DNA from: Reclinomonas americana ATCC 50394
Lineage: Eukaryota
Direction: 5' to 3'
Length of the DNA: 42,675 bases
Assembly: GCA_048213135.1 (NCBI GenBank)
Contig: PS015077.1
Span: 114,917-157,591 of the forward strand
Every line of letters starts with the position of its first letter. Positions within the stretch are counted from its first letter, which is position 1. A model generated the notes under the pieces. It made no database searches and was not told where the DNA came from. It saw only the letters and a list, made by a program, of their open reading frames with translations. The translations under genes were made by a program, and so were the position numbers. Shown here in pieces: positions 54 through 38,600 of this stretch.

Positions 54-1038
54 ACACGCGGGTTACTCGTACTCGGGGCCCACTGCCGCACACTCGTTCC
101 AGCACATCCCGCCAGAGGGCATGTTGCGTGTGCTTTCCCCGCCCCCTCGTTGTTCTTGTAGGTTGCGGGCGTCTGACCACGCGCGCGCACCTAGTCGTCG
201 TGTGTTTATCCTCGGCCCGTCGCACCACGTGTACTTTGAGAACATTTGCCTGCCGAGTGTGTCGGTGTACGAGACGCCACTGGGAAACCTCACCATTGAT
301 GCCGCAGGTGCACGGTTCTGCGTGTCTCTCTCTCTCTCTCTCGCTCTTCTGCTGGCACTGATTCTCTCTCTCTCTGGCACCCCGGTCAGTCGTGCAAGAG
401 CTGGCGCGCACCGGCAAGTTTGATCAGGTGGAGGCGCACGCCGATGAGGAGGAGCACAGCATTGAGATGCAGCTGCCGTACATTGCCAAGCTGATGGCGG
501 GGTACGTACGTCGCGGAGGAAGAACCGTGCTCTCTGCTTGCTCACCGCGACTGAGACAACTGCTTTTGCGCGCACACGCAGTCGTGAGTACACGATCGTG
601 CCGCTGATGGTCGGGGCGACGACGGGTGCCACCGAGGCCATGTACGGCGAGTTGCTGGCGCCGTACTTTACGCCGGAAAATCTCTTTGTGATCTCCTCCG
701 ACTTTTGCCACTGGGGCAAGCGGTGCGTCTCGTCCGCGCATGTTTTTCTTGCGTGCAAAACTCACACCGTGCGTGTCAGCTTCCGGTACACACACTACGA
801 GGAGAGAGATGGTCCGATCCATCGCAGCATCGAGCGGCTAGACAAGCGTGGCATGGAGCTCATCGAGGCGCTGGACGCCGACGGTTTCCTCAAGTACCTG
901 AGCGAGACGCGCAACACCATCTGCGGTCGCCATCCCATCTCCGTGCTTTTGCATGTTGCGTGGTCTCCACACATACACACACATACTCATACGCGCACAC
1001 ATACTCCCACTGACACACAGACAGACAGAAAGACAGGC

Positions 1039-1133
<95 letters not shown>

Positions 1134-1434
1134 GACAGACAGACAGAGACAGACAGACGGAGACAGAGACAGACAGAAAGAGAGAGAGACAGAGACAGAG
1201 ACAGACAGAGAGAGAGAGACAGAGAGAGAGACAGATAGACAGACAGACAGACAGACAGACACACACACACGCACACACGTCGCCATCTCAAGCTGTAGTA
1301 CCCCGCAGATGTTGAAGCACGTGAGCACTCGCGTGCAATGTCGCTTCGTGCACTACGCACAAAGCTCGCCGGCCAAGACCGCGCAAGACTCGTCAGTCAG
1401 CTACGCCGCGGGTGTGGTCACCGATGCCGACTGA
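54..1434 (+). CDS. MEMO1: MEMO1-family protein, 5'-truncated by window edge; exons ~54-122, 195-307, 390-501, 582-722, 780-954, 1309-1434
   Basis: Spliced translation has the MEMO1 motifs [47 protein letters not shown] and DSSVSYAA. All junctions are in-frame GT-AG; TGA at 1432-1434. Confidence 0.95.
1014..1270. repeat. (GACA)n/(GA)n microsatellite inside the last MEMO1 intron
   Basis: Visible GACA tandem run with interspersed GA runs; it lengthens intron 955-1308. Confidence 0.95.
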
Positions 1435-1963
1435 ACGAGAGAGAGACGGACTGTGGTGTGTGTGCATGTACAAAGTGCTGTACAATTGCTGAAACATGAA
1501 TGTAAGAGAGACAAAGACGAGAGGGAGGGAAGAGGAGGAGTCACGTGCCGATGCCGACTGACTGAGAGAGACGGACTGCGGTGTGTGTATACATGTACAA
1601 AGGACTGTACAATTGCTGAAACATGAATGTAAGAGAGACAGAGGAAGGGAAGAGGAGGGAAGAGGAGGGAAGAGGGAGGAGGAGGAGGGAAAGGATCACT
1701 TGACGATGCCGACCGACTGAGAGAGATGGACTGTGGTGTGTGTGTGTATACATGTACAAAGTGCTGTACAATTGCTGAAACATGAATGTAAGGGAGACGA
1801 AAACGAGAGGGAGGGAAGAGGAGGGAGAAGGAGGAGGGAAAGGATCACTTGCTGATGCCGACAGACAGAGATGGACTGTGGTGTGTGTGTATACATGTAC
1901 AAAGGGCTGTACAATTGCTGAAACATGAATGTAAGAGAGACAAGAGGGAAGAGGATCACTTGG
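1423..1963. repeat. Four tandem copies (~110-155 bp) of the spacer between two convergent genes
   Basis: The core CATGTACAAAG..CTGTACAATTGCTGAAACATGAATGTAAG recurs at ~1465, 1592, 1751 and 1894. Each copy starts with GATGCCGAC and ends with a TCACTTG-like motif. Confidence 0.9.
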
Positions 1964-2390: not shown

Positions 2391-2444
<54 letters not shown>

Positions 2445-2978: not shown

Positions 2979-5900
2979 ATGGGCGAGAAGCATTCGCGCC
3001 CGATTTCGTCGTCAAGCTCCTCATCGCTTTCGACCGATGTGTCAGGAACCTCCGCCGCAACGACCCCAGCAGCCACCTCAGCAGTGCCTCGCGTCAAGAC
3101 TGTGCCACTGAGTGCGTTTGCCGACCTTGCGGTGTTGCGATCGTCGTCGACCATGGCGGGAGTCGGAGGCGCGGAGAGCCCCGGGACGGGGCGTGGACTG
3201 GTGGCGAGTGGAGGATCGGTGACACGAGCACCTCCGTCACATCGCTGGCCACTTGGCCGCGCCTCGTGCGGCCACGCAATGGTCTCGCTGACGATTCCTC
3301 GCCGATGTCCGATTCGGCGAAACGATGACGACGATGACGACGACGACGGCGCGACTAGCCATGGTCTCGACGACGAGCAAGACTTTTGCGACGACGCGAC
3401 GGCGGTCTTTGGCGCCGGCGCCCACGCGTACAGAGGCAAAGTGGATCGTGCGCGATTGGCCATGTTTGTCATTGGCGGAGTCTCGGCGGCCGGATCCGGG
3501 CAGCGCGCGGCCCTCGGCGACGCCTGGATCTACTCACTTGGTGCGTTGAGAGCGAGGGTGTGCGTGTGTGGAAGGGGTGTTGGGCGAGAGAGAGAGAGAG
3601 GAGGGGGAGAACCCAGAAGAAGAATTTCGAAAATAATCCGGCACGAGTGTGTGTCGAAAAACCAATTTGCCGCTGTGGTGTTGTGTGTGACGATTCTCCG
3701 CCTTTCACTCTCGCACACTCACACACTCTTCTTGCTGTGATGTGGTGGTAGTTGCGCCATTGTGCGGGTTCCCGCCACACACAACGTTCCTCTCCACATC
3801 ATTTCCTTCTCCACTCTCTCACTGTCTTGCCCAAAACCGAAAGTACGCACTCACTCATTCCGCACTCTCTCTCTCTCTCCGCCTCTCTCTCTCTCTTTCC
3901 GTGCACACACAGAGGATGGCGCCTGGCAGACAGTGCCCATATGCGGTGACATTATGCCTCCACTGTCGCACGTGAGTGTGATTCCCGTGACACGCGTTCG
4001 CGCCAAATCCTCTTCTTCCGCGACTGGCGATGATGATGATGACGCGGGTGCATTTGCCGCACTCATGGACGACGATGTTGGTCACGGACACATGCCGTTC
4101 ACTATTGGTCGTCGTGAGAAGGAGGCAGAGGAGGAGGAGGATGAAGTGGTCGAGTTGTTGTTGATTCCCGCCTCCGAGGTGGCGCCATCGTCGGATCGGA
4201 AACCGACACCGTCGTCTGAGCACGACAATAGCAACTTGTCGGGACGTACTGTGTTCAAGATCACCTTGCGTGCCACCTCAGGTACGCCTTTTCGCTTGCA
4301 CGTTGTTGTTTTTCCGAGGCCAGTTCCTCACCGTTCTGTGTATGTAGACAAGGATGTGCGAGCGCAGTGCGTGCGGACCACGATGCATCCGGGTCCGGCG
4401 GTGCCGACGCGGTATCGTGCGGCGTCTCCGCTGGATGGAGGACAGCGGGCGTTCATGCTGGCCATGGGCAGCGATCCGTACCAGCGAGGCTTTGTGCTGG
4501 ACTGCAGTTTCGTCCATTGTTGGCCACTGGTGTGTGGCATTCACTCACGACACCGGCGCGATGTGTAGACACGTTGCATTGTCAGCCACTGCCTCTGCAT
4601 GGCGACTTGCCGCCGCCGACGCTGGCCGAGTTCTGCATGGTGTCTCTCGACGGACCCGACCAGCGTGTATTTGTGTGGGGCGGCTTTTGCGCGCTGACCG
4701 GTCAGAACGCCGATCCGTCGCTGGCCTACACCATCCACCCCCGCACCGGCATTTGCACGCAGCATGTGTTGCGAGGTCAGATTCCTGTGGCCTCGCGCGG
4801 CGCCAGTGCCGTCTTTTCGTCGCCCAACACGCTGCTGATTCATGGCGGTCGCGAGACCGCCGGCGATCAGACCACCGGTCGCCTGTATGCCGTCAATCTG
4901 CGTTGCGTGCGCCACTCCTGTCTACACACGTGCCACCGAATCGCGGTCCCTCACTTGTCGTGTGACTGCAGGCACGTTCGAGTGCAGCCTGGTGTGCGCC
5001 ACCGAGTTTGCGGCGTCGGAGCATGCCATGTCGTTTGTGCGCAGGCCGGCCACCGACACCCGCCTCCATCCCTCCGCGTGCCTCCTCCTGTTTGGCGGTC
5101 GCTCCAATGGCTGGATCCAGAACGACTTGTGTCAGATCGAGTGCGACGGATCGGTGCTGAGTTGCGTGGGTGCTGCTCTTTTCAATTGACGTGGCTGTTG
5201 TCTCACCCGACCTCTGCTGCTGCTGCTGCCGTGACAGTGGACAATGGCGACATTGACATGGCGCAGGTGCAGGAGTCGATGATGATGGACTCGATGCGCA
5301 TTTCGTATTTCAGGAGTGCCCGAGCGCCTGCGCCGGCTCCCGCACAGACTCTTCCCGCTCCGCCGCCGCCACCGCCATCATCAACGTTGATGCCGTCAGC
5401 CACGTCGGCCTTTGCATCGTCGGCCGCGGCCATGGCCGCCGTGGCGTCTGCGCAAATCGCGTCTCCCACTTCTCCGCCGCCGCCACCGCCGTCGACACCG
5501 CAAAAGGCGGCGGCACCACAGGAGGCATCGGTCAAGTCTCCGCGCATCACGCTCGACAGCCTCTTCAAGCTGCGGTCGCCCGATCGTGGCATTTCCGACG
5601 ACGACGACGACGAGCTTGGCGAGAGGGATCGTGACGACGGTCGCGACATGTTTGTGGTGGTGGAGGACGGATGCGATGTGTGGCCAGATGTGGACGACAC
5701 CACTCTCCTCGCCGGTGACCCGCAGCCAAGTGGCGCCGGCGTCAGTGGCAGCAGCAGCTGCGAGATCCGNNNNNNNNNNNNNNNNNNNNNNNNNNNNNNN
5801 NNNNNNNNNNNNNNNNNNNNNNNNNNNNNNNNNNNNNNNNNNNNNNNNNNNNNNNNNNNNNNNNNNNNNNNNNNNNNNNNNNNNNNNNNNNNNNNNNNNN

Positions 5901-8900
5901 NNNNNNNNNNNNNNNNNNNNNNNNNNNNNNNNNNNNNNNNNNNNNNNNNNNNNNNNNNNNNNNNNNNNNNNNNNNNNNNNNNNNNNNNNNNNNNNNNNNN
6001 NNNNNNNNNNNNNNNNNNNNNNNNNNNNNNNNNNNNNNNNNNNNNNNNNNNNNNNNNNNNNNNNNNNNNNNNNNNNNNNNNNNNNNNNNNNNNNNNNNNN
6101 NNNNNNNNNNNNNNNNNNNNNNNNNNNNNNNNNNNNNNNNNNNNNNNNNNNNNNNNNNNNNNNNNNNNNNNNNNNNNNNNNNNNNNNNNNNNNNNNNNNN
6201 NNNNNNNNNNNNNNNNNNNNNNNNNNNNNNNNNNNNNNNNNNNNNNNNNNNNNNNNNNNNNNNNNNNNNNNNNNNNNNNNNNNNNNNNNNNNNNNNNNNN
6301 NNNNNNNNNNNNNNNNNNNNNNNNNNNNNNNNNNNAGTCAGTCCGGACGACGACGACGACGACGGGCACCATCACCGGCATGTGCCGCAGAACCCTTCCC
6401 CCGATATTTTTGCGTCGTCGCAAGACCTGCTTGACAACGGCCTGCCGCTGCCAACAGAGCCGGTGGCCTCGTTTGGCGAGGTTTGTGGCGATTCTCTTAT
6501 TTGTGTGCATCTCGTTGCCATGGAGTCACTGACTCGACGCAGCTCACGGAGCCAATTGAGTTGTCGGCCAGTGTGGAGCTGGACCCCATCTTTGAGGTGT
6601 TGCGACAGCAGGCCGAGGCTGATGTGGAGTTTGCCAACGCCAGGGCGCGCGAGGTGCACGAATTCGTCGACACGAGTGTGTGGTGAATTAAATCACGTCC
6701 TGCTTGGTGCGTTTGGAGGATTACTGACTCGTGCGTCGTGCAGCTGGAGCGATCGACTGGGCGCAATGGTGGCCGAGCGTAATGTTTGCTTCCGCAAGGC
6801 TTTGGCTCGTCTGCAGGACGTTGCCGAGCACGCCCGCATCCTCCCATACTTGCAGTCACCGTCCCCCCTAAATGCGGGTACGTCTAGATCTCTTTGTCTA
6901 TTTGAAAAGTTGTCAACAGGTGATGACTGGATTGCGTGCTCGCAGATCTCGTGTCCATTCGCACGCCGCCGAAGCGATACACACCCTCTGTGCCGCTCTC
7001 TCCCTTCCCGGCTCAAGACCGCGACTTTGAGAATGGATCCATGCACTCGTCGATCTCGTCGACTGCGTCGCTGACATTTGTTGCGTGCACTCGCTTCGGT
7101 GTTGATTTTCAGTTGCTGATTACTTGTCGTGGCACAGGGACGGTCGGTGAACACGGCCATGCTGCTTGACGAGTATGCCTGCCTGGCCGACCAGTTCAGC
7201 ACCGCTGTTAGCTTGCACGAACGGGCGACACAGTTGACCAACGAGTTGCAGTTGAAACGACGTCGTGCTGCCATGCAGCGCTTCACCGTGCAGGAGAGCG
7301 AGGTGTGCTCCCCCCACATATGTGTATTGTTGTTTCTTGTGCCTCTGCTGCTGACCTCCTCCTGACAGGGCCATTTCGCGAAAGCCGCACACGCAACATC
7401 TTCGTCTCTCGACGACCTACGTTCGCTCCGTGCGACCACCATGGCGGCTGAGCAGGCGCTGCAGGCGGCCGAGGACGAGGTGCGACAGCTGGAATGCGTG
7501 GTCCACGAGTTGCTCGAGCAACATGGCCAGGCGTTGCCGGAAATGCAGCTGCGCTTCTCGTGGGATGCCAAGGTACGCTCACGCACCGCGCAAGGGGGGG
7601 AAAGGTGCTGCCTTTTTCTGATTTGACAGTCTCGCAGGCACGTCAGCTGGTCCCTCGCCGTCTCCTGTCGTATTTCCGCGATGGTCGACGTCTGCGCGAC
7701 TTTGACGCGTGCAGCGGTTCTGTGAATCGCGCTCTCTTCCCGGCCACGTGCGTCGCGCGCCCACCTCCGTCTCGCCGCACTGCTGCCGTCTTTCTCATTT
7801 CCCCTCTCTCCTTCTTGCTCCACGTGCAGACACAAGCACAATCGGACGCACCACATTCTCCAGCGCATGGCGGTTGGCGACAACGCATCCGCTGGCGAAT
7901 ACAGCCTCCAGCTGTGGCAACTGATTGGCTCGCTGACTGCGGTGCGTGTGGCCAGCCGCATGTGCTGGGATTTGACGGCAGGGGGCACTGATGGTCGTCT
8001 TCTTGTTTGCAGGTGCACAGTCCTTACGTGCAACGCGTCGAGGCGATTTTCTGCGAGGACGAGGCCAAGGGCCTGCTGTTCGCGCAAATGTCCAAGCCGA
8101 AGGGAAAGCTGTTGAGCGAATGGCTTGCCATGCGCGATCGACGGGAGCGTGACGTCCGCAACGTGCTGTTCATGATCCTGCAGGTGCGTTGTGTGCTCGT
8201 CCATTCTTGCTACCACAAAGCCGCTCACTCGCTCGGCGCACCTCTGCAGGGCTTGCGTGCATTGCATCAGGCCGAGGTGTGCCACGGAGCACTCTCGTGC
8301 GATTCGATTGTTGTGCAAGAGCACAGCGATGTGCCGGTGCTCATGGTTGAGCTCGCTCGGATGAGGGCATTTGATGTCAGGGGCGGTGGTGCGTCGGCCT
8401 TTCCCTCTCGTCTGGTTGCTTGCTGTATTACTCACTTGGTACACGCGCACCCAGCCGATGACATGAAGGCCTTTGGTTGCGTCCTGTATCGCTCACTGAC
8501 CGGCGTCGACGCCACCACGATTCCGCGCTACGGCTTCGCGTCGCTCACGGAGCCCTTCAACTGCCTGACCCAGTCGCTGGTGAGTCGTGTTTTTCTTTAC
8601 TGCTGTATCTCTCTCTTTGTTGCTGACAATGTTGTGCAGATGAACGACGATGCAACGGAACGTCCGTCGGCAGTCGAAGCGCTGTGCCACCCATACTTTG
8701 CGCCGTGTCGAGTTCAGGCCTCCAGTCTGTTCCGCGGCGCCACCAGTCGGCCACCAGCAGAGCTTGTGTGGTGTGTGCACGAGTCACCTCGACTCTGTTC
8801 GATCATGTTGCTTAAGGAGAGTGTGTGTGCATGCAGGGACATTCGACACAACATTATCAATGCACAGAGGCGACAGCGGCATTTGTGCGCCGACAAGGAG

Positions 8901-10401
8901 CCGGTGAGTCGTCGCACCTGGCTGCTCGACCGTGCTCGCTTTCTCATTGATTTTTTTTTGTTTTCCGTACCCGTTAGGCCGTGCTGCTGGTACGACGCAC
9001 ACACCTGGTCACCGACTTGCTGGCTGGCGGGGCCGACAGCAGCTGCCCACCGGACAAGTGGAACCGATTCATGCGTGTCGAGTTTCTCGAGAACAACGGT
9101 GTCGCTGGCGCGGTCAGCAAGCCCGGTCGTCTGGTGGACGTGATTGGCCCGGTTCGTTGTCGCAGCAGTTAGTTGTTCGTGCACGTCGCCGAGACTGACG
9201 TGCAGTCGCGTCCGCGCGTAGTTCTGTCGTGCAGTGTGCTGGGGAACCGTCGCCTTTGAGGTGTTTAGTGACACTGTGGTGTTGCCGCGCGCCATCAATG
9301 GCCTCGGATGCCCGGAACTCGTCTCGTGTCAACGGTACGCACGCTTCTGTTCGCGCCAAGAGTCCCTGTGTGCTCACTGTGCATGGTGGTGCAGGATTCT
9401 CGTCACACTCGGCCACTTGCTGGCACTCTGCGTCGAGTGCGACAAGTGTGTTCCATCGTTCCTGCGACTGCCGATCCTGTGGGATATGCTTGCGCGTTGC
9501 GTCTCGTGTTCTGTACCCTGCCCCCCTTGCTCTCCGTTTGCTTGTCGACTGAGAGTGTTGCGACTACTGCAGCGCACTCCTGGCTGCGCCGTGCCTGCGA
9601 AGACAACCGCGTTCCCGATGCACAGGTGGTCGATCGCGCCGAGCGGCTGCTGGCAACATGGCAGCTGGTGAGCACCGACGAGGCGCGTACCATGCGCGCC
9701 CTTTTGGCTTCGTCCAACACACCGGTGCCGGAGGCGCTGGTGGAGGCCATTGACGGCGGCTTGTACGGCGCGTGTGGCATGCCAGGTGAGTCGAGTTCGT
9801 GGCATGTGTCCACGAGAAAAAGAAAAGGGAACTGACTGATGGCTGCCTCGCAGACGTGGCCGACACGACATTAGTGGGCCGAGCACGCCTGGTGTGCGCC
9901 ATTATTGTGTCCAAGCTGGGCGGTCACGGACGCTTGGCGGCCTTTGACTTCATTCGCGAGGGTCTCACGCTGCGCTGCCTCAACACACTGGACGCGTCGG
10001 TGCGTCGCTCGGTGGCGGTCGCGATGGGACCGCGAGAGTGGATGATGCTGCTGTCGCCGGAGGAGACAATCGATCGCGCGTCACTGGTGGCCGCGCTGAC
10101 CTACGACAACGTGCCGGACCCGGCCATGGTGCAGCACGTACTCATGTGCATGCTGAGCGACGACGAACTGCGATTGCTGCTCGAGTACGTCACCGGCGCA
10201 CCAGCACTGTCACTGGACTCGCCCGGCGCGCACCACTCGGTGCCGGCCATTCGCATCCGCGGCGTCAATACATCGGCCAAGAACGGGCCCTCCAGTCACG
10301 TAGCAGTTCGCCAGCTCACCATCAGCACCACCAGTGACTCGGCCACGGCACTTCGCGATCACATACTGACCGCCTTGCGACTTCACTTGCAGTCGATGTG
10401 A
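2979..10401 (+). CDS. Multidomain protein: Kelch-like repeats, Pro-rich/acidic linker, coiled coil, degenerate protein-kinase domain, C-terminal HECT-like domain. Continuity across the gap at 5770-6335 is assumed.
   Basis: Kelch motifs: MFVIGG..LGDAWIY, VFVWGG, LLIHGG, LLLFGG..NDL. Kinase fold: ILQGLRALHQAEVCHGAL, DMKAFGCVLY, ERPSAVEALCHPYF. HECT-like: LLVRRTHLVTD..RVEF, LGHLLA, LRLLLEYVTG, PSSHVAVRQL. Exons splice in frame. Confidence 0.7.
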
Positions 10402-10686: not shown

Positions 10687-12108
10687 ATGCATATGGAACC
10701 AGTGCAGTTCTTCGGGCTGGAGATCGCCCCCAAGAAGTCGTTCGCGTCGGAGGTGCCGCAGGGTGCGTTGCCTTTACACAACGAGCGAGTGCATGTAGAC
10801 AGTGAGAGAGAGAGAAAAACAACGACTGACTTTTGTCATGTTTCTTTGCGCATGCACAGGCGCAAGTCTCCGCGTTACTCAGGTACGTGCATGTGCTGCA
10901 GCGAGAGACTGCATGTGCGAGAGAGAAAGAAAAAAACAGAAAAAAAGTGGTTGTCTCGTGCACATGTGCATGTGCACCACGGTTGCATTTTTTTCCATAG
11001 ACCAACTTTTTTTTCTCTCTCTTCTTTTTTGCGTATGCAGGCGGCGCTTGATCCCAAGTCGCCGGCCAACGAGCGCTCGACTCTGTACGTGTCGATCAAC
11101 GAGGACAAGTTTGTGCTGGCCAACTTCAAGACGGGCCTGTGCGAGAACGTGCCTCTGAATGTCGTCTTTAGCGAGGGCAGCGAGGTCAGCTTCAGCGTCA
11201 GTGGCAACGGCACTGTGCATCTGACTGGCTACTACGAGGCCTCAGTCGAGGAGCTGTTGCGTTTTTCATTGCAAGGATCATGATTGATTGTCCGTGAGCT
11301 GACTTGTAGTGCAGTGGTTTCGGTGAGGAGGGCGAGGAGGAGGATGAGTTCTCTGACGATGATGAGATGGATCTGGACGACGACGACGACAGCAGCAGCA
11401 GCGAGGAGGAGAAGCCTGCGGCTGGCAAGAAGAGGGCAGCGTCGGGCAAGCCGCAGGAGGGCGAGCCGCCGCAGAAGGCGGTGAAGCAGGAGGCCAAGCA
11501 GGCGGCTCCGGCGGCCAATGGCGAGAAGGGTGGCAAGCAGGGCAAGCAAGGCAAGCCGCAGCAGCAGCAGGCTCCGGCCNNNNNNNNNNNNNNNNNNNNG
11601 CTTCGCCGGCGCCGCAGGGTGAGAAGGGTGGCAAGCAGGGCAAGCAGGGCAAGCCGCAGCAGCAGCAGCAGAAGCCGCCGCAGTCTCCGGCCGCGTCGCC
11701 AGCGCCGCAGGGTGAGAAGGGTGGCAAGCAGGGCAAGCAGCAGCAGCAGCAGAAGCCGCCGCAGTCTCCGGCTGCCTCGTCAGCGCCGGAGGGTGAGAAG
11801 GGTGGCAAGCAGGGCAAGCAGGGCAAGCCGCAGCAGNNNNNNNNNNNNNNNNNNNNAAGCCGCCGCAGTCCCCGGCCGCGTCGCCCGCCCCTCAGGGTGA
11901 GAAGGGTGGCAAGCAGGGCAAGCAAGGCAAGCCGCAGCAGCAGCAGCAGAAGCCGCCGCAGTCCCCGGCCGCGTCGCCAGCACCTCAGCCCAAGCAGGGT
12001 GGCAAGAAGAACAAGGTGGGTGATTTTGTGTTACGTGTGCGCTGTCTTCTCGCTTGAGTGCTTACAACCATCGCCGATTTAACGCAGGGTCAGGAGCAGA
12101 AGAAGTAA
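10687..12108 (+). CDS. Nucleoplasmin-like (NPL; HD2/FKBP39-type) protein with acidic tract and K/Q/P-rich repeat tail
   Basis: FFGLEIAP..LRVTQAAL..STLYV..KFVL..VPLNVVF..VSFSVSGNGTVHLTGYY is the typical NPL beta-jellyroll signature. It is followed by a D/E tract and a basic tail; TAA at 12106-12108. Confidence 0.85.
11519..12000 (+). repeat. Coding tandem repeat encoding GEKGGKQGKQGKPQQQQQKPPQSPAASPAPQ-like units (at least 5 copies)
   Basis: GAGAAGGGTGGCAAGCAGGGCAAGCA recurs five times. Two short N gaps suggest collapsed copies. Confidence 0.9.
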
Positions 12109-15276: not shown

Positions 15277-15329
15277 CGCTCACACTAATTGACAACGAAG
15301 TAACGTTCGCGACACAGGACGTCTCTCCA

Positions 15330-17561: not shown

Positions 17562-17592
<31 letters not shown>

Positions 17593-26500: not shown

Positions 26501-29500
26501 ACCACGCTGGACCAGCTGACAGCTGTGCGATTGGTGGCGAGCAACGGCACATGTGCTGGCTCGCCCACCAACCACGCTGCTGTGACGAACGCGTCAATCA
26601 CCGGCACACCGGCATCGACCTCAGCTGCGCTGTCCGTGACTCTGTCACAGAGCATCACACTGAAGGTGAGTTCTTAAGGCACTTTCTTTGTGCACTTACG
26701 TCCATGCTGACGTGATGCCTCCTCTGTGCAGTTGTGCGTGCAACAAGGCAGTGCTGTGTGGATCGACTCGACGTTCTCGATCACGTCCACAATCAGTTAC
26801 GCGGATGGTGCAGAAGCAATTGGCTGTTTGTGTACTGACGGCGGTTTTTTTTTGTATAACACAGTGACTGTGACAAACGTGACCCCGACATCGATCATTG
26901 GCAACAATGCGACTGCCGTGAACTTGACCGGCACGACGCTGGACCAGCTGACGGCTGTGCGATTGGTGGCGAGCAACGGCACATGTGCTGGCTCGCCGAC
27001 CAACCACGCTGCTGTGACGAATGCGTCGATCACTGGCACACCGGCATCGACCTCGGCGGCACTGTCCGTGACTCTGTCACAGAGCATCACACTGAAGGTG
27101 AGTCCAGAGACATATTTGATTGTGCACTTGCGTCAGTTCTGATGTGGTGTCTCCTCTGTGCAGTTGTGCGTGCAACAAGACAGTGCAGTGTGGATCGATT
27201 CTACGTTCTCGATTACCGCAGCAATTCGTGCGTTGCACCTATTGCCTTGCAACAGCGCTGCGCTTGTCACTCATGCCATTGCCTTGCCGCGCAGTGACGG
27301 TGACGAATGTGGCGCCGGCTTCGATTACGGCCAACAGCGCAACGGCTGTGAATCTGACAGGAACGACGCTGGATCAGTTGACGGCTGTGCGATTGGTTGC
27401 CAACAATGGCTCGTGTGCTGGCACGCCGACCAACCACGCTGCTGTGGCAAATCTGTCCATCACTGGCACACCGGCGGCGACCTCGGCTGCGCTGTCCGTG
27501 ACCATCTCACAAAGCATTACGCTAAAGGTGAACTGCGAAGACACAGGTTGATTTTTGTGCCCAATTGCTGATGATGTGTTTCCGCTGTACAGCTGTGTGT
27601 GCAGCAGGCCAGCACTGTGTGGATTGACTCCGGGTCGACTATCAGCGCTGCTGCTCGTTGAGTACTTGGGTATTGTCTGAGCGTGCCATTCCGCGTCTGC
27701 TTTGCGCTCACGAGGTTTTGCTGCACATTGCACAGTCACCGTGACCAATGCGAATCCGTCGGCACTGATCGGCAACAATACCACGACGGTTAATCTGACT
27801 GGCACGTCGCTAGATCAGCTTACTGGTGTCAAACTGGTGGCCACTGGCGGCATGTGTACGGGCTCGCCGACAAATGACGCATCTGTGGCGACACTGACAA
27901 TCGTGGGAACGCCGACGGGAACAATGGCCGCGTTGTCTGTGAAGATAACACAGAGCGTGACGTTGAAGGTACGGAAAGACAAGTCCGACCATCGACAATT
28001 GGTTGCTGACTCTTGTGCGTACGTACAGTTGTGCTTTGAGCAGAGCAGCTCATTGTGGCTTGATTCTGGGCTGACGATTAGCGCTGCCATTTGTTGCGTA
28101 GTCGCCTGTTGTTCTACGGCGCGTAGTGATCGCCATTTCTGACCTGTGTTGTGATCGACAGTGACCGTGACAAATGCGTCTCCGTCGACGGTGGTTCCGG
28201 GCATGGTGATCACGAATACAGTGAATCTGACCGGCACAGTGTTGGATCAGTTGACCGCCGTGAGGCTTGTGGCTTCCAATGGGAGCTGCGCGGCTACACC
28301 GACGAACGATGCTTCTGTGGCCGCCCTTGCAATCAATGGAACACCGACAGCCGGTGCTGCAGTGCTGACAATGTCGATTCTCCAGAACATCACGCTGAAG
28401 GTCCGTAACTTGTCTTCTCTGTCTTCGTAATGCGGTGCATCGTGCTCACTGCGGTGCACTACAATGCAGCTGTGTGTGCAACAAGGAAGTGCGGTGTGGA
28501 TTGACTCCGGTCGCACAATTACCGCGGCTACCAGTTGCGTTCGGGACGGAACGAGAAATATAGCACCAGACGCGAGCGTGTGTTGCTCATGCCGTGTTCT
28601 TTTTTGTTTGCGTAGTGACGGTGACCAACGTGACACCGTCGTCTGTGGTCGGCAACAACACCACGGCCGTCAACCTCACCGGCACGATTCTGGATCAGTT
28701 GACGGCAGTGCGGTTGGTGGCCAACAATGGTAGCTGTGCAGGCACGCCAACCAACCACGCGTCTGTGACGACGGCGACGATCACTGGCACGCCGACAGCC
28801 GGCGCGGCCGCTCTGTCGGTGCTGATTACGCAAACCGTGACGCTCAAGGTACTACACGGCTCTATTGGGGCGTTGCTTAATTGGAGTCGACAGCTCACTC
28901 ACATGTTCTCGCGCATCGTGCAGCTCTGTGTGCAGCAGGCAAGTCTGCTGTGGATTGATTCGGGATCGACGATTGCGTCGCTGATTTGTTGCGTGCGCTT
29001 CATGACGGCCGTGCTATTTTGCGGTGTACCTCACACCGTTGGCACTGTTGCGCGCAGTGACCGTCACCAACGTGGCACCATCGACTGTGGTGACCGGCAT
29101 GACGGTGGCGAATGCCGTCAATCTGACTGGCACTACGCTCGATCAGCTCACTAATGTGCGGCTTGTGGCCAACAATGGCACATGCACTGGATCGCCGACC
29201 AATCACGCGTCGGTGGCGGCGCTGACCATCACTGGCACGCCGGCATCCACTGCAGCTGTGTTGTCTGTGTCCATTTCGCAGGACATCACGCTGAAGGTTT
29301 ATCTGTCGCCCGTATCTCTGTTGGCTCTGTGTACGCCGCTTCATCTTTCTGACCCCATCACAAAATTTTTCGTGCAGTTGTGTGTACAACAAGGCAGTGC
29401 GGTGTGGATCGATTCGACGTTTACGATTACCGCGGCAACCAGTTGCGTGACATTCACCCATATTATGTGTATGTGTGGGTTTCGGAGAAACTCACCCGAT

Positions 29501-31774
29501 CGTTACTGTGCAGTGACCGTGACGAATGTCAATCCGACGGCGGTTGTCGGGAATGTGACGACCACGGTGAACCTTACGGGCACCATTCTGGACCAATTGA
29601 CGGCCGTACGACTGGTGGCGAACAATGGCACCTGTGCAGGCACTCCTACCAACCATGCCGCTGTGGGCACTCTGTCGATCAACGGAGTGCCGACGGCAGC
29701 AGCTGCGGTTCTGTCCGTGTCCATCACGCAGACCGTGACCCTGAAGGTGTGTTTACTAAGCCCCCTCACGCCATCGCGGGTCTCTGTGCTGTTACTGAAG
29801 TTCGCAAATCGCAGTTGTGCGTGCAACAAGCGAGTCTCGTTTGGTACGACTCAGGATTCGCCATTGCATCCACCATCAGTTGAGTTCCTTCAAAATGCGC
29901 TTTCTCCATCTTTTTTGTCAACTCATCGTTCGTTGACCGCGAACAGTGACGGTCACGGCCGTGACGCCAACGTCGCTGGTCGCCAGCATGGCGTTCGCCA
30001 ACACGGTGAATCTGACCGGCACAGCGCTGGATCAGCTCAGCGGAGTGCGGCTGGTTGCCAACAATGGCAGCTGCTCGGGAACACCGACAAACGACGCCTC
30101 CGTCGGAAACGTGACAGTGGCGGCAATGAAGACAGCCACCAGCGCGTCGTTCACTACGATTGTGACGGCGGCCGGTACGCTCAAGGTACACTATCGATCC
30201 TACAGTGCCCGTTTCGCGCTCGCAGTGCTAACTTTTGTGTGCGCGCGCAGGTGTGTGTGCAACAAAATAGCGTCATCTGGCTGGATTCGGGCTTTACTGT
30301 CACTGCGGCGCTGAGTTGCGTTTTTCCGACCGGTCCGCCATGGCTGTTGCATTTGGCACTTATTATTGTCGTTCTCTCCGACTAGTGACGCTGACCACTG
30401 TGGCACCGAACTCGCTGACTGCGGGCTCGACGACTGCCGTCAATCTGACGGGAACTGCACTGGACACGATGAGTGCGGTGAAGCTGGTGGCCAGCAACGG
30501 CGTGTGCGGCACGTCGGCCACTGACGCAGCTGTGACCACACTGACCATCACCTCCAAGGCATCGACAACGGCCGCTCTGTCCGTGTCTGTGTCGCAAGCC
30601 GGCACTTACAAGGTATTGTCGGTGTTAAGCGGCTTTGCGTGTCTCGCTTGATCCTTCATCTCACCCACTGGTGTTGTGCAGTTGTGCTTGGAGCAACTGG
30701 GCGTGCAGTGGTGGGACTTTAGCAAGAACATCACTGTGCAAGCAGGTACCTCGTCAAGCAATGTGCTGTCATTCTCGAGTGCTGTTTCACTGACGCATCG
30801 ATGCGTTCCGCATCGCAGCTACTATCGGTGTGGCCAACGTGACACCGAGCACCATTGTGGCCAGTCCAAGTAACGATTCGGTGCCGACCACCGTCAATCT
30901 CACGGGCGAGAACCTCGATCGCCTGGCTGACATTGCGCTGACCGCGGGTGTGTGCACTGGTACGCCAACCAATGACGCATCGGTGAATTCGGCCACCATC
31001 ACCTCCAACTCGGCAATGGCGGCTGCCTTGTCCGTGTCGATCTCTCAAAGCATCACCTTGAAGGTGGGTCTCCCAACTCGTAGTTTCGACCCTTGTCACT
31101 TTCCACTCATTGTACGTTTTTTTGTTGCAGTTGTGCGTCAAGGCAAACACGAATGTGTGGGCCGACTCTGGGGCCACCATCACTGCCGCCCTTCGTTGCG
31201 TACGACGCATATTGTTGAAAGTAGCAGAGAGTATGCCAGCGAAACTCATGGCTCCATACTCCTTTCTCTCTCTCTCTCCCCACTTGTGTAGCCACTCTGA
31301 CGAGCGTGACACCGAATTCCGTGAATGCGCTGGCGGCTCCTGGAAACACCATGCCCAAGACCACGCTGACGTGGACGGGTACCAATTTGATGGCCGGCAA
31401 CACATTGCGCATTGTGCTGTACTCGTCGGCTTGCACGGGCTCCACCGGTACGGCCACTGGTGTGACGCTGACCAACTATGCCACACCGAATGGCACCACG
31501 CACACTGTGGACATGACATCGTCGGTCAGTGGATCCGTGCACACGCCNNNNNNNNNNNNNNNNNNNNNNNNNNNNNNNNNNNNNNNNNNNNNNNNNNNNN
31601 NNNNNNNNNNNNNNNNNNNNNNNNNNNNNNNNNNNNNNNNNNNNNNNNNNNNNNNNNNNNNNNNNNNNNNNNNNNNNNNNNNNNNNNNNNNNNNNNNNNN
31701 NNNNNNNNNNNACATCGTCGGTCAGTGGAGTCCGTGCACACGCCGCAATGAGCTGAAGCACGTTTGTTTCTACA

Positions 31775-31819
<45 letters not shown>

Positions 31820-34800
31820 CTCGCAGGTTGGTGGCCGGTACCGTGCTTGCATTCTGTTTGCGAATCGCACCAAGTATGTGCAAGCCGGCGCCGACACGCC
31901 CATTTTGGTCATCGGTGTGTTGGTAGCGGCAGTTCTATTCATGTAAAGTGCGCTCTCTTGACGATTGCGTGCTATATTGTGCGACAGGTTCTGTGACTAG
32001 CATCGCGTCGCCGGCCACACCAGTGTACTTTACTGTCGGCACGACAGGATCGCTGGTCCTGGCTGGCTACGCGCTCACATCCGACGATGCGTTTTCGATC
32101 TCGCAGTCGGCTGCCATGTGCGGCGCCAACGCCGCAGCCATCACCATGACTGCACCGTCGGCAGGGCGCACCGCGTCGCAAGTGCCGCTGACACTGAGCT
32201 CCACGGCCAGTGGCTCATTCAAGGTGTGCGTGTCGTACAACGGCACGGTGGCATCGGCACAGGCTGTGAACGATCTCGTTCGCTTCCGCGGTGCGTTGGC
32301 GTCCACTCTGCATGCATGCAGCTGGACGCATCTCTCACTCTCTCCCATATGATATGCTTGCAGGTGCGCTGATTTCGTCGTCGCCCACTGGCATTCAGAC
32401 GAATGTCACGTCCAATGTGAGCATCACCGGCAACGGTCTCAACGCCGGTTCGGTGGTGAAGGCCGTCGGTTCCACCCAAGACTGCTCGGCGAACCAGGCC
32501 GCCACCACCACCATCTCGCCTGTCACGTTGACTGGAACGAGCACGCTCCAGTTCACTGTCCTGTCGACGTTGAGTACGGCATTGTGAATGTGCTATGCCG
32601 TTCTACGCCATTGCTGCGGCTCATTGCTTGTGTACAGGGTCAAGGCGGTGTTGAAACTGTGTGTGCGACAGTTTGCGGATGATGCATATTTGCCGGTGCC
32701 GAATGGCACGCTGGCAATCAACAGTTGCGTGGCGTGGTGTCGGTGAGCATGGTTGCTGGCTCGCAGAGTACTCATGCAGCAGTGCATTGCAGCGTTCGCC
32801 ACGAGCGGCCCGGCCAGCGTGACTGTGCAGAACGCAACACCGTTTGGTTTCGAGGTGGTGTGGCAGCCGTGCCCCGACGACGTCGACAACTTGGTGTCGG
32901 GCTACCAGATCGATATGCGCGGTAACGATGGTCAGACATATTCGTTCCCGCCAACCACAGTGGGAATTCCGTGGCAGGACTTTGACAAGCGTGACAAGCT
33001 TCTGTACAAGTTCTTGACGTTGCCGCCGGACACCACTGTTGCGTGTATGAGGGGAAAATGCGAAAGGACAAGGGTGGCATTGTGCTCAATGATAGTAATA
33101 CATGTATGCAGTACTCGGAGATTCGAGTGACGGCCTACTCGGGCACCGTCAACAGCGGCTCGAGGTTGTCGGACCCCTCTACCATCCGCACACTTGCTGC
33201 TCGTGCGTGGCGTGTGCTTTTTTGTTGCTGTTGAGTGTTGTTGTCGCTGACTCGAAGAATCGTGATCGTTTGCAGCTCCTGGTGAACCGCAGTCGCTGGT
33301 CGGCTCGGGATTTACAGTGGACGATGTTGGCTCGATTCGATGGACGTGGCAGCCGCCGGTGATTCCCGGTTCTCTCCAGCCGTCGTACGCGTACTACCTG
33401 CAGTACCGACTGCAAGGGTCGACCACGTGGTCTCGTCGAGTTCCGGAGACGGGTTCGATCACGGATCTGACGGTGACCACTGGCAGCCTCACGCCAGGTG
33501 CGTAACGCGAGAATTCTCGCCTCCATTATCACCTGTGGTACACACTTACTCACTGCTCCACTCGGGTGCAGGCCTCACGTACGAAGCTCGAGTGTTTGCG
33601 ACCAACAACAGATATGACGGATTCGGTCCGGCATCTGACGTTGCAGCGGCCACACCTCGTTGCGTTCGACAGTTTCCTTGCTTGGCAGTTGTGGTCTGTG
33701 CTCACGGACGACGGTCGCTGTTCGTACCACAGCGCCCGCAACCATCCCTGCGCGCCCTGTTAATTTTGCGGTGCTTGACAATGGCGGCACCATCCAATTC
33801 TTCTGGATTCAGCGCAATAATGGCGTGCCGCTGACCCGCTCCGTGATCACATGCACTGGGTTTGTTGGCGCTGTCTCCTGCTCTGGCTGGTTGTGCTGCT
33901 GCTATTGCCTGTTTCGTTGACTCGTGTGAGTGTCACTACAGCACCCCAAGCACGGAAATGTGGACTGTCGGCGTGCAGGCACCGCTGACGACGTACACCG
34001 TGACGGAGAGCGATGTTCTGAACCAGTTTTCGGACCCAAGTGCGCCGATTTCGTGCACGGTGACCGCTGTTGCCGATGGCAGTGGCTTGACGGCTACGGG
34101 CACGGCTGTGCCGCTCACGCGTTCGCTGCTGGCCGATCATATCGGTGAGCAAACATTGTGTTGCATGACTGTCCATTGGAGGAGGATGTGCACTCACACC
34201 ATGCGCGGGGGCGGTACACGCAGGTGTGATGCGCATGAAGGTGGAGAATCCGTCGGACATCACCGGTGCCGGAGATGCGGACGCACAGACGCCGACACTG
34301 ACGGTCACCACGCGCTCCGGATTCGCGGTGACGTGGAACTTTAGCCCGACCACCTTCTGCATGACGTCGAGTACGGTGGTGACAGTCGACGCCTCCAATC
34401 AGGCGATTCCACTTTCGATCCGCACGGTTACGTCTTGTCAGTGTGCGCACATTGCCGAGAACTTGCTCTTCTCACGTGTCTGCGTGAATATCTGCAGCTG
34501 TCGGCCTTTGTCGATGGTTTCGTGGTCACGACAGACAATGCTTGCACGATGCCACAGCGGGATACGCTGCGAACAGACAACCAGTGGCTGACCTCTGGCG
34601 GCGTAACCATCAACATTCCGTCCACGGTTGCGTGCCTGACCGGTGGTGAAGCCTGACGGACGGCTTCTGCTTTTTCCTCACCTCCTTTGTTGTGTGTCTT
34701 GCAGGTTGGTGACGTCGATCCACATCTCTTTAAGTACGACCCGGTCACTGGACAGCTGTCGGTCTCCGAGACCGCATGCGGCGGACTGCAAACGTACAAT

Positions 34801-35570
34801 CGTGCCAATGGCGATTTGACTGCTGTTGGATGTGCCGATGGCACGTACGCCATTGTCCGCAGCTTTGATCCAGGTGCGTGTGAAGCTGTGCTGGGCGACG
34901 ACGAGCATGTAGGAGAGATGCTCACTGCGTTTCTCGTTCTGTGTGCGTGTGTGTGCGTGCTTGTGCCTGCAGTGGTGGTTGTGAAGCCTGCCGTGTCGGA
35001 CAAGTGCGCTTGCGAGTGGTACTGCATTTTGTTGATTGTTGTGGGATGCGGCGTCGTGGCCTTTGCCTTGTATGCCGGCCTGCGTTGGTTCCTCCTGCAG
35101 CCGTCGGGAGCCAAGGGAGCGCCTCCGGCGCTCTCTGCGTATGGCGCTGGCGCCTTGGTTTGTCGATCGATCGGGGGTGCTCATTTTTGTTGCTGTTCTT
35201 GTGTTCTCACGTTGGTTGTTTTCTTTTCGGCAGACCACGGTCGATGTGCACGACGCTGAGGTTGCGGTGCGTTATCAGTATTGTTGTCGTTGTCGTGCAT
35301 GTTCCTTTGACGACTTACATTTGATGATTGCAGAGCCCTGTTGCTCGACGATCTGGGCTGATCGATTTGAGAACTCTGTCGCCCACCAAGTTGCGTCAGC
35401 CACCACCACTGTCTCCATGTTGGCGACGCAGCTTTCTTACCTGCCTCTTCTCCTCGCAGTCGTGCTTCGTTGCTGGCTGAGGGGTAAGTGATGCAATCAT
35501 TTATTCGAGCTACGTTGAGCCTAACTTACCCTCGTTCCGCAGCTCAACGTCGCCAGTAAACTCGCCGTAA
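16723..35570 (+). CDS. Giant single-pass membrane protein: signal peptide, S8 subtilase-like domain (KP-43/Dictyostelium Tag type, catalytically dead) with C-terminal beta domain, cadherin-like domain, ~19-22 IPT/TIG-like repeats, ~3 FN3 domains, TM helix, short S/P-rich tail
   Basis: Signal MRHAYLVAIAAALVLVIAPLCVA. S8 motifs GKNQRIGMNVSGVDYFNCFFHD, NHRKI, NGTHMAGTISG, KNSLTVGA, VVAPG, AVAGVAALLREY, PASLMRALLINS, FGYGLVKL, LNDLNL, RNLEERV. FN3 motifs VVWQP..GYQI and WTWQPP..YEARVFA. TM WYCILLIVVGCGVVAFALYAGL at ~35017-35085. Stop TAA at 35568-35570. Confidence 0.8.
22872..31194 (+). repeat. Intragenic array of 19 clear ~430-460 bp units (2 exons + 2 introns, ~99 aa each); about 3 more diverged units follow to ~32720
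   Basis: Example: exon 23336-23568 (233 nt) + exon 23632-23695 (64 nt) = 297 nt, encoding TVTNVTPTSIIGNNATAVNLTGT.LDQLTAVRLVASNGTC...SITLK/LCVQQGSAVWIDSTFSITSTI. Confidence 0.95.
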
Positions 35571-35656
35571 GGCCCGCCAGACAATGAAGAATGTACACTT
35601 GTTTTCATCAACAAAGTCCAGCGTCCTTCGTTTTCGTGTGTCCTGAATCGTCGTCG

Positions 35657-38600
35657 ATGGGTTGTGCGGCGCCAGTAGCCGCCTCGCGTCCACGCGCTGG
35701 TTTGCACATCTGATAGCACGCTACACTTGTGCTTGGCATACAGTCCTCACTGCGTCGCGCGCAGTGTACGATGATCCACCAACCGTGTACACACCGATTC
35801 CACCGCAGGTGTGCGATCGCATCGCCACGAGTAGTAGCGCTCTCCCCACACTCACACACATGTGCGCACTCTCTCTGCGAGCAGTTTGCGCCGGTGACTT
35901 CTCCGGCGCTGCTGCCACATTCACCGATGGCTTCGCCACCGACGCCATCCTCGTTGGTCGTTGCGGCGCGATCGCCACCGCAGCAATTCACTCCCGTACG
36001 CACGCCCAGCCGCATGATGAACCTCTCACACACAGCGACGCCACCGGTTAGTGCTGTTCACAAGAACGTTCTTATGAGTGCGCGATCTGTTGTGTGATGA
36101 ACAAACGCGGCTGCAGAATGCCACTCCGCTGGCCGTCTTGCGTGACAAGATCGAGCAACTGCGAATGCGCTGTCTCATGCGGTTGCGTGGTGATCGCCTT
36201 CGGCAGTGCTCGTCGCCCTGTGCGTCTCCTCATCTCGTGATCGTTCACCACGCCTCCAGCATCCGCGATGAACTGGAGTTGGCGTATCGCAGCTGCTTGG
36301 CTGTGCCAGTGAGCGCCGAGGTGATGGCGGGTCGGCATCTGCACGACACCACAAACGTGCCAGCGTGGGATCTGCTCGTGGAGTTTGCGAAACAAGACAG
36401 CGATCGCGTACTGCTGGTAGTCGGGCCGAGCGGGAGCGGCAAGACGATGCTGGCTCACAATCTGGAGGCGTTTATGTGGGAGGTTGGATCGCGATGTTGT
36501 GCGTGTGGGCGATGCACGTGTGTGTGGCTCACTCGCTTGTGCTCGCATGCACACTGGCAGAACTGGGAGTGGGGCAACTCGGCGCCCATTCCGGTGCGTG
36601 TGCCTCTGGATCTGTGCCTGCTCGACGATGTCGTCAGTGGCGAGTTCTGGGATCGTCTGCTGGCGCACGAGGGCTTCACGTTTGACGAGGTTTGTGTTGA
36701 TTCTCCACACATACTCTCCTTGCCATTTGCTCATGTGTCGCCGTCGTCGATGATGGCATCTAGCGAGCTGCGCTCAAGGTGCACCACGAAATCGTCTTCT
36801 TGTGTGACGCCTACGAGAGCCTGGCACCGAATCCTCCCAATCTCTACACTCACAACCGCCTGTCGGTTCGATACGCTATCAAGCTCCGCACGTCGCGGTT
36901 GCGACCATTCTCGCTCACACGCTCCCTTCATTCGTGCAGGCGTGGCAGGCAAAGCTCGTTGTGCTGTGCGACAGCGGCTTTATTCGCTCGTTCAAGCACG
37001 GCAACCTCTTCACCACCCTCTTCTCTCCAATATCAGCGTTTCCGACGCTGGGTAGTCCGCTCATACCCGGCCTGTCGCAGTGCTTCCTGAAACCGCTCAA
37101 CGATTCGCAACTGAATGCGTTTCTGCAAGAGTTGCGCTGCACTGTCGATCTCATTGTTGGTGTGTTGTCGTCGTCGTCGTCGTTCACCTCATGACGAATT
37201 CCGGGCCCCCAGGTTCGTCAAGACACCACATACGCAGTCGCGCGACTGGCAAGTGTACAGAAGGCAGCTGGAGGGTGTACCAGGCCTGCTGACCCTGTGT
37301 CGTGAGGTGCTGTCATCAGTCGCCCCTTGTCGCTTGCGTAACCCACGCACACTGAACAAGCTGTTGCGTGTTGCTTGCGCAGCCGTTGTATCTGAACCTT
37401 GCACTGGCCTGTTTGCCGGTTTCGTTCGCGGACGGCGATGTTGACGCAGCGTTTTCAACTGCCACGCATCGTGCACCGCTGAAGTCATACGAGCTGATCG
37501 GCGCGTTTGTTCGATGGTGGTTCACCAATGTCATTCGACAGCCGCCATTTGCGCAGGTGTTGTTGTTGTTGTTGTTGTGACGCCCACTACCAGCTGCTCA
37601 TTGACATCACCTGTGTCTGCAGGCCTTTACTCGAGAGCCGAGTCTCGCGCAGTCACTTCTCCCGTTTGGCAAGACTATTGCCTTTTGGTTGCTTGCCACC
37701 CCCGCTGCGCAAGTGTCGGAGGAGTGCTGCCCTGTCGGGTGGCAGTACATCAACAGTCTGTGCCATCCGACGCAACTGGATCTGCTTGTTCGCGCGGTCA
37801 GTTGTGCGGAGTATTCTCGTTGTTGTTGGTGTGCAGCTAGCTGATGCGCCATAATCAGGGCTGCATGTCGTGGACAGAGCAGGGTGGAATTCAGTTTGCA
37901 CACAGAGCATTGTTTGCGTACTTTGCCGCAGTGGAGACGGTGGAAACATGTGTGGCTGGCGGAGATAGACTCGAAGCGCACGCATTCAATCATCGCATCT
38001 TGACTTCGGAGGTGCGTTGTGTGTCTCTGCTCTGTCCCTGAAAAGCAAAGTTGACCTGGTTGTCGTCGCGCACACGTCAGCGACAATTGGTGTCCTTTAT
38101 CGGCGAGAGTGCCCAACGCAATGCGCAAGTGGCCGCTCGCTTGTTTGAGATTGTACAGAGCTCTGCGACGCGACCGGAGATGGCCATCGCTGCCAGCAAT
38201 GCTGCAACGGGTGCTTATTTTCCCATGGATTCAACGGCATTTCTTTTTTGCCTCTCATTCTCTATCTCTCCGTGCAGTGCTCAACTGGGCCAGTTTTTCG
38301 TTTGCCAACCAGAACATGGCCCATGTGCGACTCCCGTACGTTGACTTTTCGCGAGTGCGTCTATTGTCTCCGTGTGCGTGCGTGATTGCTCTCGTTTTGC
38401 TGACAACAGCACAGGCGTGGCTCGATGGCACGAATTTGGAGGGTGCGCACCTTCAGCACGCTGTGCTGGAGAAAGCGTGGCTGCGGCGAGCCAATCTGCG
38501 GAATGCCGACTTGTCGGACGCTGTGCTTCGAATGCATCCACACATGCACCATCCGGGCTGGGTCATGTGTGTGGCACTCTCTGCCAGTGGTTTGCACCTG

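Follow-up and report, generated by a model that had tools for sequence, protein, structure and literature searches.

How does a spliceosome choose its cut site when the donor consensus lies one base further into the intron than usual? This question is raised by a stretch of 42,675 nucleotides (nt) from Reclinomonas americana ATCC 50394 (contig PS015077.1, positions 114,917 to 157,591; hereafter the window), in which many modelled introns open not with a canonical donor such as GTGCGT but with the same motif carrying an extra T after the GT, as in GTTGCGT. The 42.7-kilobase (kb) window has a G+C content of ~55%, contains seven N runs, and is dense in introns, most of which are short. This one window is the sample, and its introns are predicted from sequence and gene models. 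The existence of a second donor class with an extra T had been claimed in an earlier note on this DNA, and the claim is borne out here by strand-specific enrichment of the motif, by its intron context, and by cut sites that protein sequence fixes. In what follows, coordinates are window positions on the plus strand unless the minus strand is named, a slash within a motif marks the cut, and donors of the form GTT[GA][ACG]GT and GT[GA][ACG]G[TC] are called shifted and canonical, respectively.

The first line of evidence is the abundance of the motif. Outside simple repeats, GTTGCGT is the top 7-mer of the window, with 36 copies on the plus strand and 5 on the minus strand, compared with 8.1 expected under a dinucleotide Markov model. 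Other inserted bases do not show a strand excess; the counts on the plus and minus strands are 0 and 1 for GTAGCGT, 3 and 5 for GTCGCGT, and 7 and 4 for GTGGCGT. T is the sole enriched extra base. Most of the plus-strand GTTGCGT copies have a CT[CG]A[CT] motif downstream and a CAG or TAG at 58–100 nt. An intron of 55–100 nt starting at the motif is the best frame-restoring solution for 32 of the 46 plus-strand GTT[GA][ACG]GT sites and, by the same rule, for 0 of the 9 minus-strand sites, a count in which the rule overlooked a 66-nt solution at 13045 on the minus strand.

At the 26 plus-strand and two minus-strand coordinates listed in the earlier note, the letters are as it gave them, except at 4507 (GTTTCGT) and 37131 (GTTGCGC). 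Its plus-strand shifted donors match GTT[GA][ACG]GT in 19 of 21 cases, and none of the 21 follows a G. The site at 37131 is read through as coding sequence in one gene model and is probably exonic, and the site at 4507 is doubtful as a shifted donor. GTTTCGT has also been rejected as a further donor type, with most of its 5 plus-strand sites lying within exons. Separately, a few weak donors that follow AG carry T at +3 and no GCGT core (23117, GTTCAC; 29291, GTTTAT; 20148, GTTCGT; 6481, GTTTGT), which suggests that T at this position is tolerated more widely in the genome.

The introns were placed with an equal-score model in which GT[AG][ACG]G[TC] and GTT[AG][ACG]G[TC] were weighted alike, the exon base was ignored for both, and other GT donors were allowed only after AG. 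On the plus strand, the model yields 63 introns, of which 27 are shifted, 23 canonical, and 13 other. On the antisense strand, which served as a control, it yields five introns, none of them shifted. Two clearly wrong introns were then removed from the plus-strand set, one at 29817 (inside a conserved coding segment of a repeat array described below) and one at 17838 (AAG acceptor), and seven were added, comprising five in a MEMO1-like gene on the basis of homology and the array introns 23696 and 29879 on the basis of paralogy. The counted set therefore holds 68 introns, namely 31 shifted, 23 canonical, and 14 other, giving a shifted share of ~45% of the modelled introns. Thirteen of the 21 plus-strand shifted sites of the earlier note are in it. 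Two donor-neutral models, which use GT...AG only, are too noisy for a donor logo because the codon bias of the genome is weak. Both of them choose the shifted donors at 4902, 11256, 28093, 28988, and 33038, and the first also chooses those at 18128, 21433, 34427, and 34627, in each case without motif information.

The position of the cut can be read from protein homology in the MEMO1-like gene (1–1434). Its first shifted intron, T/GTTGCGT at 123–194, is 72 nt long. The earlier note had placed this junction at PEGI/RRVF, and the placement agrees with human MEMO1 (PDB 3bcz), on which exon A extends to residue 66 and exon B resumes at residue 68. One residue is left between the exons, which is exactly the codon split by the intron. 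The junction gives Ile at a position occupied by I, V, or Y in the homologues. The second shifted intron, T/GTTGCGT at 955–1308, is 354 nt long and was placed by homologue alignment. Its junction encodes His-Met, the same as in P0003, and is free of gaps when aligned with the shortest length class of homologues. Against 15 homologues the shifted junctions of this gene are gap-free, apart from two homologues with an insertion at the first junction, which leaves 13 of the 15 gap-free there. As read from the alignment, a cut moved by one base would place M at the I/V/Y position and change the H-M junction to H-V. A canonical comparator, G/GTGCGT at 723–779, was placed in the same gene by homologue alignment. 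The 955–1308 intron also contains a long (GACA)n/(GA)n microsatellite at 1010–1270 and is the only clearly long intron seen.

Protein homology was also sought at other shifted junctions, among them the two further anchors of the earlier note, ILN/DLNL and FAY/IES. For the putative protease gene at 17.6–22.1 kb that carries these two, ten open reading frames and ten exons gave no significant Pfam match, two exons gave no useful PDB match, and a whole-library HMMER search with the exon at 21514–21711 returned one unrelated repeat protein only. A similar motif is conserved in a C-terminal domain of some subtilases, and this is not taken as a test of the cut. The exon upstream of 33038 matches the fn3 domain weakly (E = 0.043); a check of the 33037/33112 junction by this match and the domain consensus has been given no weight.

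A natural experiment on the donor is provided by a very large gene on the plus strand, which bears an exon-duplicated array of 19 tandem units at 23.1–31.3 kb (23100–31300). Each unit is ~440 nt long and has two exons, one of 233 nt followed by an intron after AAG/ and one of 64 nt followed by a second intron, termed intron B. The array introns are ~77% identical in the early units and have diverged to background in the late ones. As had been claimed, 17 of the 19 units are shifted at the second intron, 16 with GTT[GA][ACG]GT and one with the motif variant A/GTTACGC (26796–26864, placed by array comparison and outside the counted shifted set). The two exceptions are C/GTGCGT at 27228–27294 and G/GTACCT at 30746. 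Array comparison and the equal-score model together support A/GTTGCGT at 24142–24215, 24578–24660, 25022–25100, 25909–25987, 26350–26432, 28534–28615, 29442–29513, and 30315–30385, A/GTTACGT at 25464–25546, A/GTTGAGT at 23262–23335, C/GTTGAGT at 27657–27735, and C/GTTGCGT at 31195–31291, as well as the canonical exception at 27228. The T/GTTGCGT introns at 28093–28161 and 28988–29057 were found by both donor-neutral models and by the equal-score model. The A/GTTGCGT intron at 23696–23776 was added by paralogy; it is 81 nt long and in frame, and hence was read through by the model. Finally, A/GTTGAGT at 29879–29946 comes from array comparison and replaces the spurious model donor at 29817.

Two of these units calibrate the cut. 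The sequences ...ATT C/GTGCGT (27228) and ...ATT T/GTTGCGT (28093) both yield x-x-Ile-Leu-Thr-Val-Thr, and the equal protein register means that the extra T is intronic. The cut of these predicted introns at N/GTT is thus fixed by two independent lines, homology in the MEMO1-like gene and paralogy in the array. The array is also informative about constraint. Among the eight diverged units, second-intron bodies are 54% identical, compared with 53% in shuffled controls, while the heptamer is 94% identical; as judged from this conservation, the whole heptamer is under purifying selection in the array. At the introns after AAG/, the donor keeps GT alone (GTGAGT, GTGACT, GTGTGT, GTCCGT, GTATTG, and others).

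This split within the array, degenerate donors after AAG/ and an invariant heptamer after non-G exons, is what would be seen if U1 pairing were not involved and the heptamer instead signalled strongly from within the intron to U6 or to a protein factor, making up for exons whose pairing with U5 loop 1 is poor. Two donor classes distinguished by their pairing potential with U5 loop 1 or with the U6 ACAGA box are described in PMC11732430, and the window would hold a local version of such classes as known from humans. However, compensation alone predicts N/GTGCGT, with no extra base, and after non-G exons the shifted form outnumbers the canonical one by 29 to 6. U6, too, would presumably have to slip by one base in order to pair with G+6 and U+7. 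We consider an explanation without U1 very unlikely.

Apart from the donor, the two classes of intron look alike. All of the shifted introns end in YAG (26 CAG and 5 TAG). A CT[CGA]A[CT] motif lies 8–45 nt from the acceptor in 27 of the 31 shifted introns and in all 23 canonical ones, and the median distance from the branch A to the acceptor is 24 nt and 25 nt, respectively. Since the gene model rewarded a branch motif, its presence is partly by construction, but the equal type and distance between the classes are not. The branch motifs CTGAC, CTCAC, CTCAT, and CTGAT and the CAG acceptor are common to both classes, the median length is 68 nt for canonical and 74 nt for shifted introns, and the G+C fraction is 0.52 in both. 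The likeness in branch motif, acceptor, length, and base composition makes a single major spliceosome likely, and the shifted class is likely a second donor form of the major (U2-type) spliceosome, acting on GT-AG introns. Two other types of intron were considered. U12-type introns resemble the shifted class in having a long, near-invariant donor and no exon-end preference, but here the branch motif and its distance do not differ from those of the canonical introns, and both the donor GTT[GA][ACG]GT and the branch motifs are unlike the U12-type signals. The non-conventional introns of some euglenozoans are described in PMC12621601 as lacking GT-AG ends and having intron ends that pair extensively with each other; the diplonemid donors given in the same source are (G)/GTATG. 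In the window, GT-AG ends are present, and the pairing between intron ends has a mean z of -0.62 overall and -0.45 outside the array relative to shuffled controls, so that euglenozoan-like introns have also been rejected.

These comparisons bear on the possibility that the class is an artefact of coding bias, of a repeat, of sequencing errors, of mis-modelled introns, or of minor or euglenid-like splicing. The assembly is rough, with its seven N runs and a frameshift without an intron in a dynein-docking gene, half of the cases are paralogous, and the models are motif-aware. On the other hand, two cut sites are fixed by homology, nine shifted donors were chosen unaided by the donor-neutral models, chance is made unlikely by the strand bias and the antisense control, the donors and their CT[CG]A[CT] branch motifs do not resemble U12-type signals, and there is no excess of intron-end pairing. 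An artefact has been largely refuted by these observations and is given next to no credence.

The position tables show how the two classes are related. GCGT occupies +4 to +7 in the shifted class and +3 to +6 in the canonical class, and GTT is present in 31 of 31 shifted donors. A third group of donors consists of AG/GT with degenerate intron bases. The earlier note had tied the choice between the two classes to the last exon base, and this association holds. Among the canonical donors, 17 of 23 follow a G, compared with 2 of 31 among the shifted ones (Fisher p = 2.6e-7). With the array left out, the counts become 11 of 16 for the canonical and 2 of 15 for the shifted class (p = 0.003). Seen from the exon, non-G ends are followed by 29 shifted and 6 canonical donors. 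Two details of the claim need correction. Canonical donors after a base other than G, which had been treated as exceptions, are not rare (6 of 23). Likewise, shifted donors had been said usually to follow A, C, or T; the loss of the G preference stands, but exclusion of G is not supported. Outside the array, the last exon base before a shifted donor is A in three, C in five, G in two, and T in five cases, which is roughly the background composition.

The reading that we favour, with a probability of roughly 55%, is that these are ordinary major-spliceosome introns whose donors are read as one heptamer in a fixed register and cut before its first GT. The donor signal would be a single heptamer, G-(G or T)-T-G-C-G-T, and the small nuclear RNA (snRNA) that first reads the donor, by analogy U1, would bind it in a fixed register anchored on TGCGT, with cleavage before the first GT within the heptamer. 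Where the exon is able to end in G, the site would take the form G/GTGCGT. Where it is not, the intron would supply the G itself, giving N/GTTGCGT, and the helix would come to lie one base further from the cut. The shifted helix would need U+3 to face the A whose usual partner is U+2. The motif, its place at the starts of the predicted introns, the cut site, the specificity for T, and the lost preference for an exonic G are established at the level of sequence. That U1 and then U6 would be the readers, and that the helix would be shifted and not bulged, is inferred. In human cells, shifted and bulged U1 registers have been experimentally established according to PMC4856993. The proposal that G+1 stands in for G-1, which goes back to the earlier note, agrees with the sequence pattern, in which the TGCGT core is shared, exactly one extra T is present, and the G-1 preference is gone. 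The accompanying proposal, that shifted pairing or a variant U1 or U6 snRNA is a routine mode, finds partial support.

Several observations weigh against this fixed-register reading. With either the human U1 5' end or a hypothetical GC-adapted one, the predicted duplex energies of shifted sites are -10.4 kcal/mol (after A) and -7.3 kcal/mol (after U), compared with -10.3 kcal/mol for canonical sites without G-1, so that the shifted sites gain no advantage. The human 5' end was taken from PMC4856993, and the GC-adapted and variant U1 sequences are our own constructs. In the absence of an energy advantage, a single flexible U1 leaves the dominance of shifted donors after non-G exons (29 against 6) unexplained. 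The depletion of G at -1 outside the array is not significant (2 of 15 against a background of 0.29, p = 0.14). A at -1 would be expected to be enriched if this base paired with the next U1 base, yet outside the array it is found in 3 of 15 cases against a background of 0.19, and A at -1 as a sign of such pairing has accordingly been rejected. The model behind the intron set is motif-aware, and a single gene supplies 16 of the 31 shifted introns as paralogues. Finally, at gathering thresholds a scan found 0 Rfam families in the window and hence no U1 or U6 sequence there.

The same energies and base preferences bear on a bulged helix, in which ordinary U1 would pair with G+1 and one U, the other U would bulge out, and GCGT would pair as usual, with the cleavage register remaining the same. 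Human GUU donors are classed as "bulge +2/+3" in PMC4856993, which reports validated bulge registers in human cells, and the best predicted duplex of G/GUUGCGU with the GC-adapted U1 does contain a bulge. In such a helix, however, the -1 base would still face a U1 C that prefers G, and yet outside the array G is found before 2 of 15 shifted donors and 11 of 16 canonical ones. In addition, the bulged base need not be U, and yet T alone is enriched. The loss of the G-1 preference together with the T-only enrichment favours a shift over a bulge, and the bulged helix is regarded as improbable.

The failure of a single flexible U1 on energy grounds also brings in a second U1. In this alternative there would be two snRNA populations, with a variant U1 reading GTTGCGT by unbroken Watson-Crick pairing and the ordinary U1 reading G/GTGCGT; the variant could, for example, carry A for C at the position that normally faces G+1, and a matching U6 variant is possible. 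A hypothetical variant U1 with an A facing U+2 gives shifted sites predicted energies of -14.7 kcal/mol (after A) and -11.4 kcal/mol (after U), which is an argument and not evidence. Such a variant would account for the near-invariance of seven bases, for the T-specificity, and for the missing G-1 preference. In the diplonemid S. specki (PMC12621601) and in humans (PMC3561869, PMC10870369), U1 genes that differ at the 5' end are reported to coexist within one genome. On the other side, the Rfam scan detected no snRNA gene in the window, and the two classes are alike in every other intron feature. A dedicated U1 (and U6) variant, although rather unlikely in our estimation, is a serious possibility. 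More broadly, and tentatively, two donor-reading systems may operate in parallel, with near half of the introns of the genome depending on this, either because a second U1 (perhaps U6) is complementary to GUUGCGU or because the distance from the scissile bond to the U1/U6 helix is routinely n or n+1.

The remaining shifted introns of the window lie outside the MEMO1-like gene and the array. Both donor-neutral models and the equal-score model agree on C/GTTGCGT at 4902–4971, on T/GTTGCGT at 11256–11314, which lies in a nucleoplasmin-like gene with the NPL domain upstream, and on T/GTTGCGT at 33038–33111, inside the weak fibronectin-III-like domain. The first donor-neutral model and the equal-score model support T/GTTGCGT at 18128–18201 and A/GTTGCGT at 21433–21512, together with the two introns that form the exception by following G, G/GTTACGT at 34427–34497 and G/GTTGCGT at 34627–34704. 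Frame restoration and the equal-score model support A/GTTGCGT at 5161–5237 and C/GTTGAGT at 19827–19930, the latter with an ambiguous acceptor (19902 or 19930). The equal-score model places C/GTTGCGT at 21712–21776 and 33659–33732, C/GTTGAGT at 32569–32637, and A/GTTGCGT at 32724–32792. On the minus strand, T/GTTGCGT at 12980–13045 begins a 66-nt intron of a kinase-like gene, with the same frame open on both sides, an internal stop, and a CAG acceptor.

Other sites are candidates. T/GTTGCGT at 7080–7137 would begin a frame-restoring intron of 58 nt with 51/75 open flanking codons, and it was placed by another model run and not by the equal-score model. Three plausible introns are in no model: C/GTTGCGT at 9496–9572, with the motif and a CAG at 77 nt; A/GTTGCGT at 19224–19298, which precedes a 21-nt exon and has the motif, CTCAC, and a CAG at 75 nt; and A/GTTGCGT at 35390–35459, which precedes a 24-nt exon. 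The acceptor of the candidate donor A/GTTGCGT at 17146–17152 is uncertain, and only a 305-nt intron restores the frame; this site, too, was placed by another model run. The candidate donors T/GTTGCGT at 20898–20904 and, on the minus strand, T/GTTGCGT at 13424–13430 run into N gaps.

Nearly all of the genes modelled at 1–41139 are on the plus strand, the exceptions being the kinase-like gene (minus strand, 12.3–14.1 kb) and the dynein-docking gene. Downstream of the stop codon of the MEMO1-like gene, an intergenic repeat of ~130 nt occurs in tandem, with four to five copies at 1440–1960 (plus strand); an exact 29-mer of this repeat has no match in metagenome_contigs. The nucleoplasmin-like-domain gene near 11 kb was identified by its Pfam NPL match, and its protein (11316–12060, plus strand) has an acidic stretch followed by repeats like PQGEKGGKQGKQGKPQQQQ, with two short N runs inside. 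A NACHT/WD40 gene lies at 36–41 kb on the plus strand, where a large open region (36078–41139) encodes a P-loop (NACHT/AAA-like) motif and then WD40 repeats; its exon structure is poorly resolved. The right end of the window carries an outer-dynein-arm docking (ODAD1-type) gene on the minus strand, in which the frame changes at about 41840–41870 without any intron signal, probably through an error of assembly or sequencing or through a pseudogene lesion. For the MEMO1-like and dynein-docking proteins, the best relatives in the databases are only 60–69% identical and come from very diverse eukaryotes; for the dynein-docking protein, the best matches are 60–68% identical and come from diverse protists. 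The organism is therefore a flagellate to which these collections offer no closely related sequence.

In the full-text literature on the donor motif, U1 registers, bulges, and protists, supplements aside, no description of an abundant extra-T donor class was found. Alternative donor registers are known only as a rare human exception; the principle of a non-canonical register is known, but not on a scale of about 45% of introns. If the pattern is true genome-wide, it would offer a natural system for studying cleavage-site choice independent of the U1 helix, the takeover of a displaced site by U6, and the partitioning of introns between snRNA variants. On a practical level, gene finders trained on one donor matrix will get about half of this organism's introns wrong.

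Among known systems, the U5-type AG//GU and U6-type //GURAG classes (PMC11732430) resemble the contrast seen here between exon-supported donors (AAG/GT with degenerate intron bases) and intron-supported ones, but the extra base of the intron-supported class is not part of that scheme as set out there. The closest parallels are human. The earlier note had likened the shifted donors to GUU donors that are read by human U1 in a register displaced by one base. A non-canonical register is indeed known in humans, but the parallel is imprecise, as PMC4856993 files GUU donors under "bulge +2/+3" and treats "shifted" as a separate scheme. In the human shifted (+1) register (Roca and Krainer 2009, cited via PMC4856993), all donor/U1 pairs are displaced by one position while cleavage stays at the GU. 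The likeness lies in a consensus that continues past the GU one base further in. According to the same source, very few, atypical human sites use it; here 31 of the 68 modelled introns would do so, with a displaced GCGT and always with U+3, and the role of U1 is assigned by analogy. The human bulge +2/+3 register (Roca et al. 2012; PMC4856993) is similar in having two U after the G and a consensus displaced by one base. It accounts for 68 of 201,541 human sites, or 0.03% (Tan et al. 2016, PMC4856993 Table 3), compared with about 45% of the modelled introns here, and the G-1 preference that would be expected of it is absent from the shifted donors of this window.

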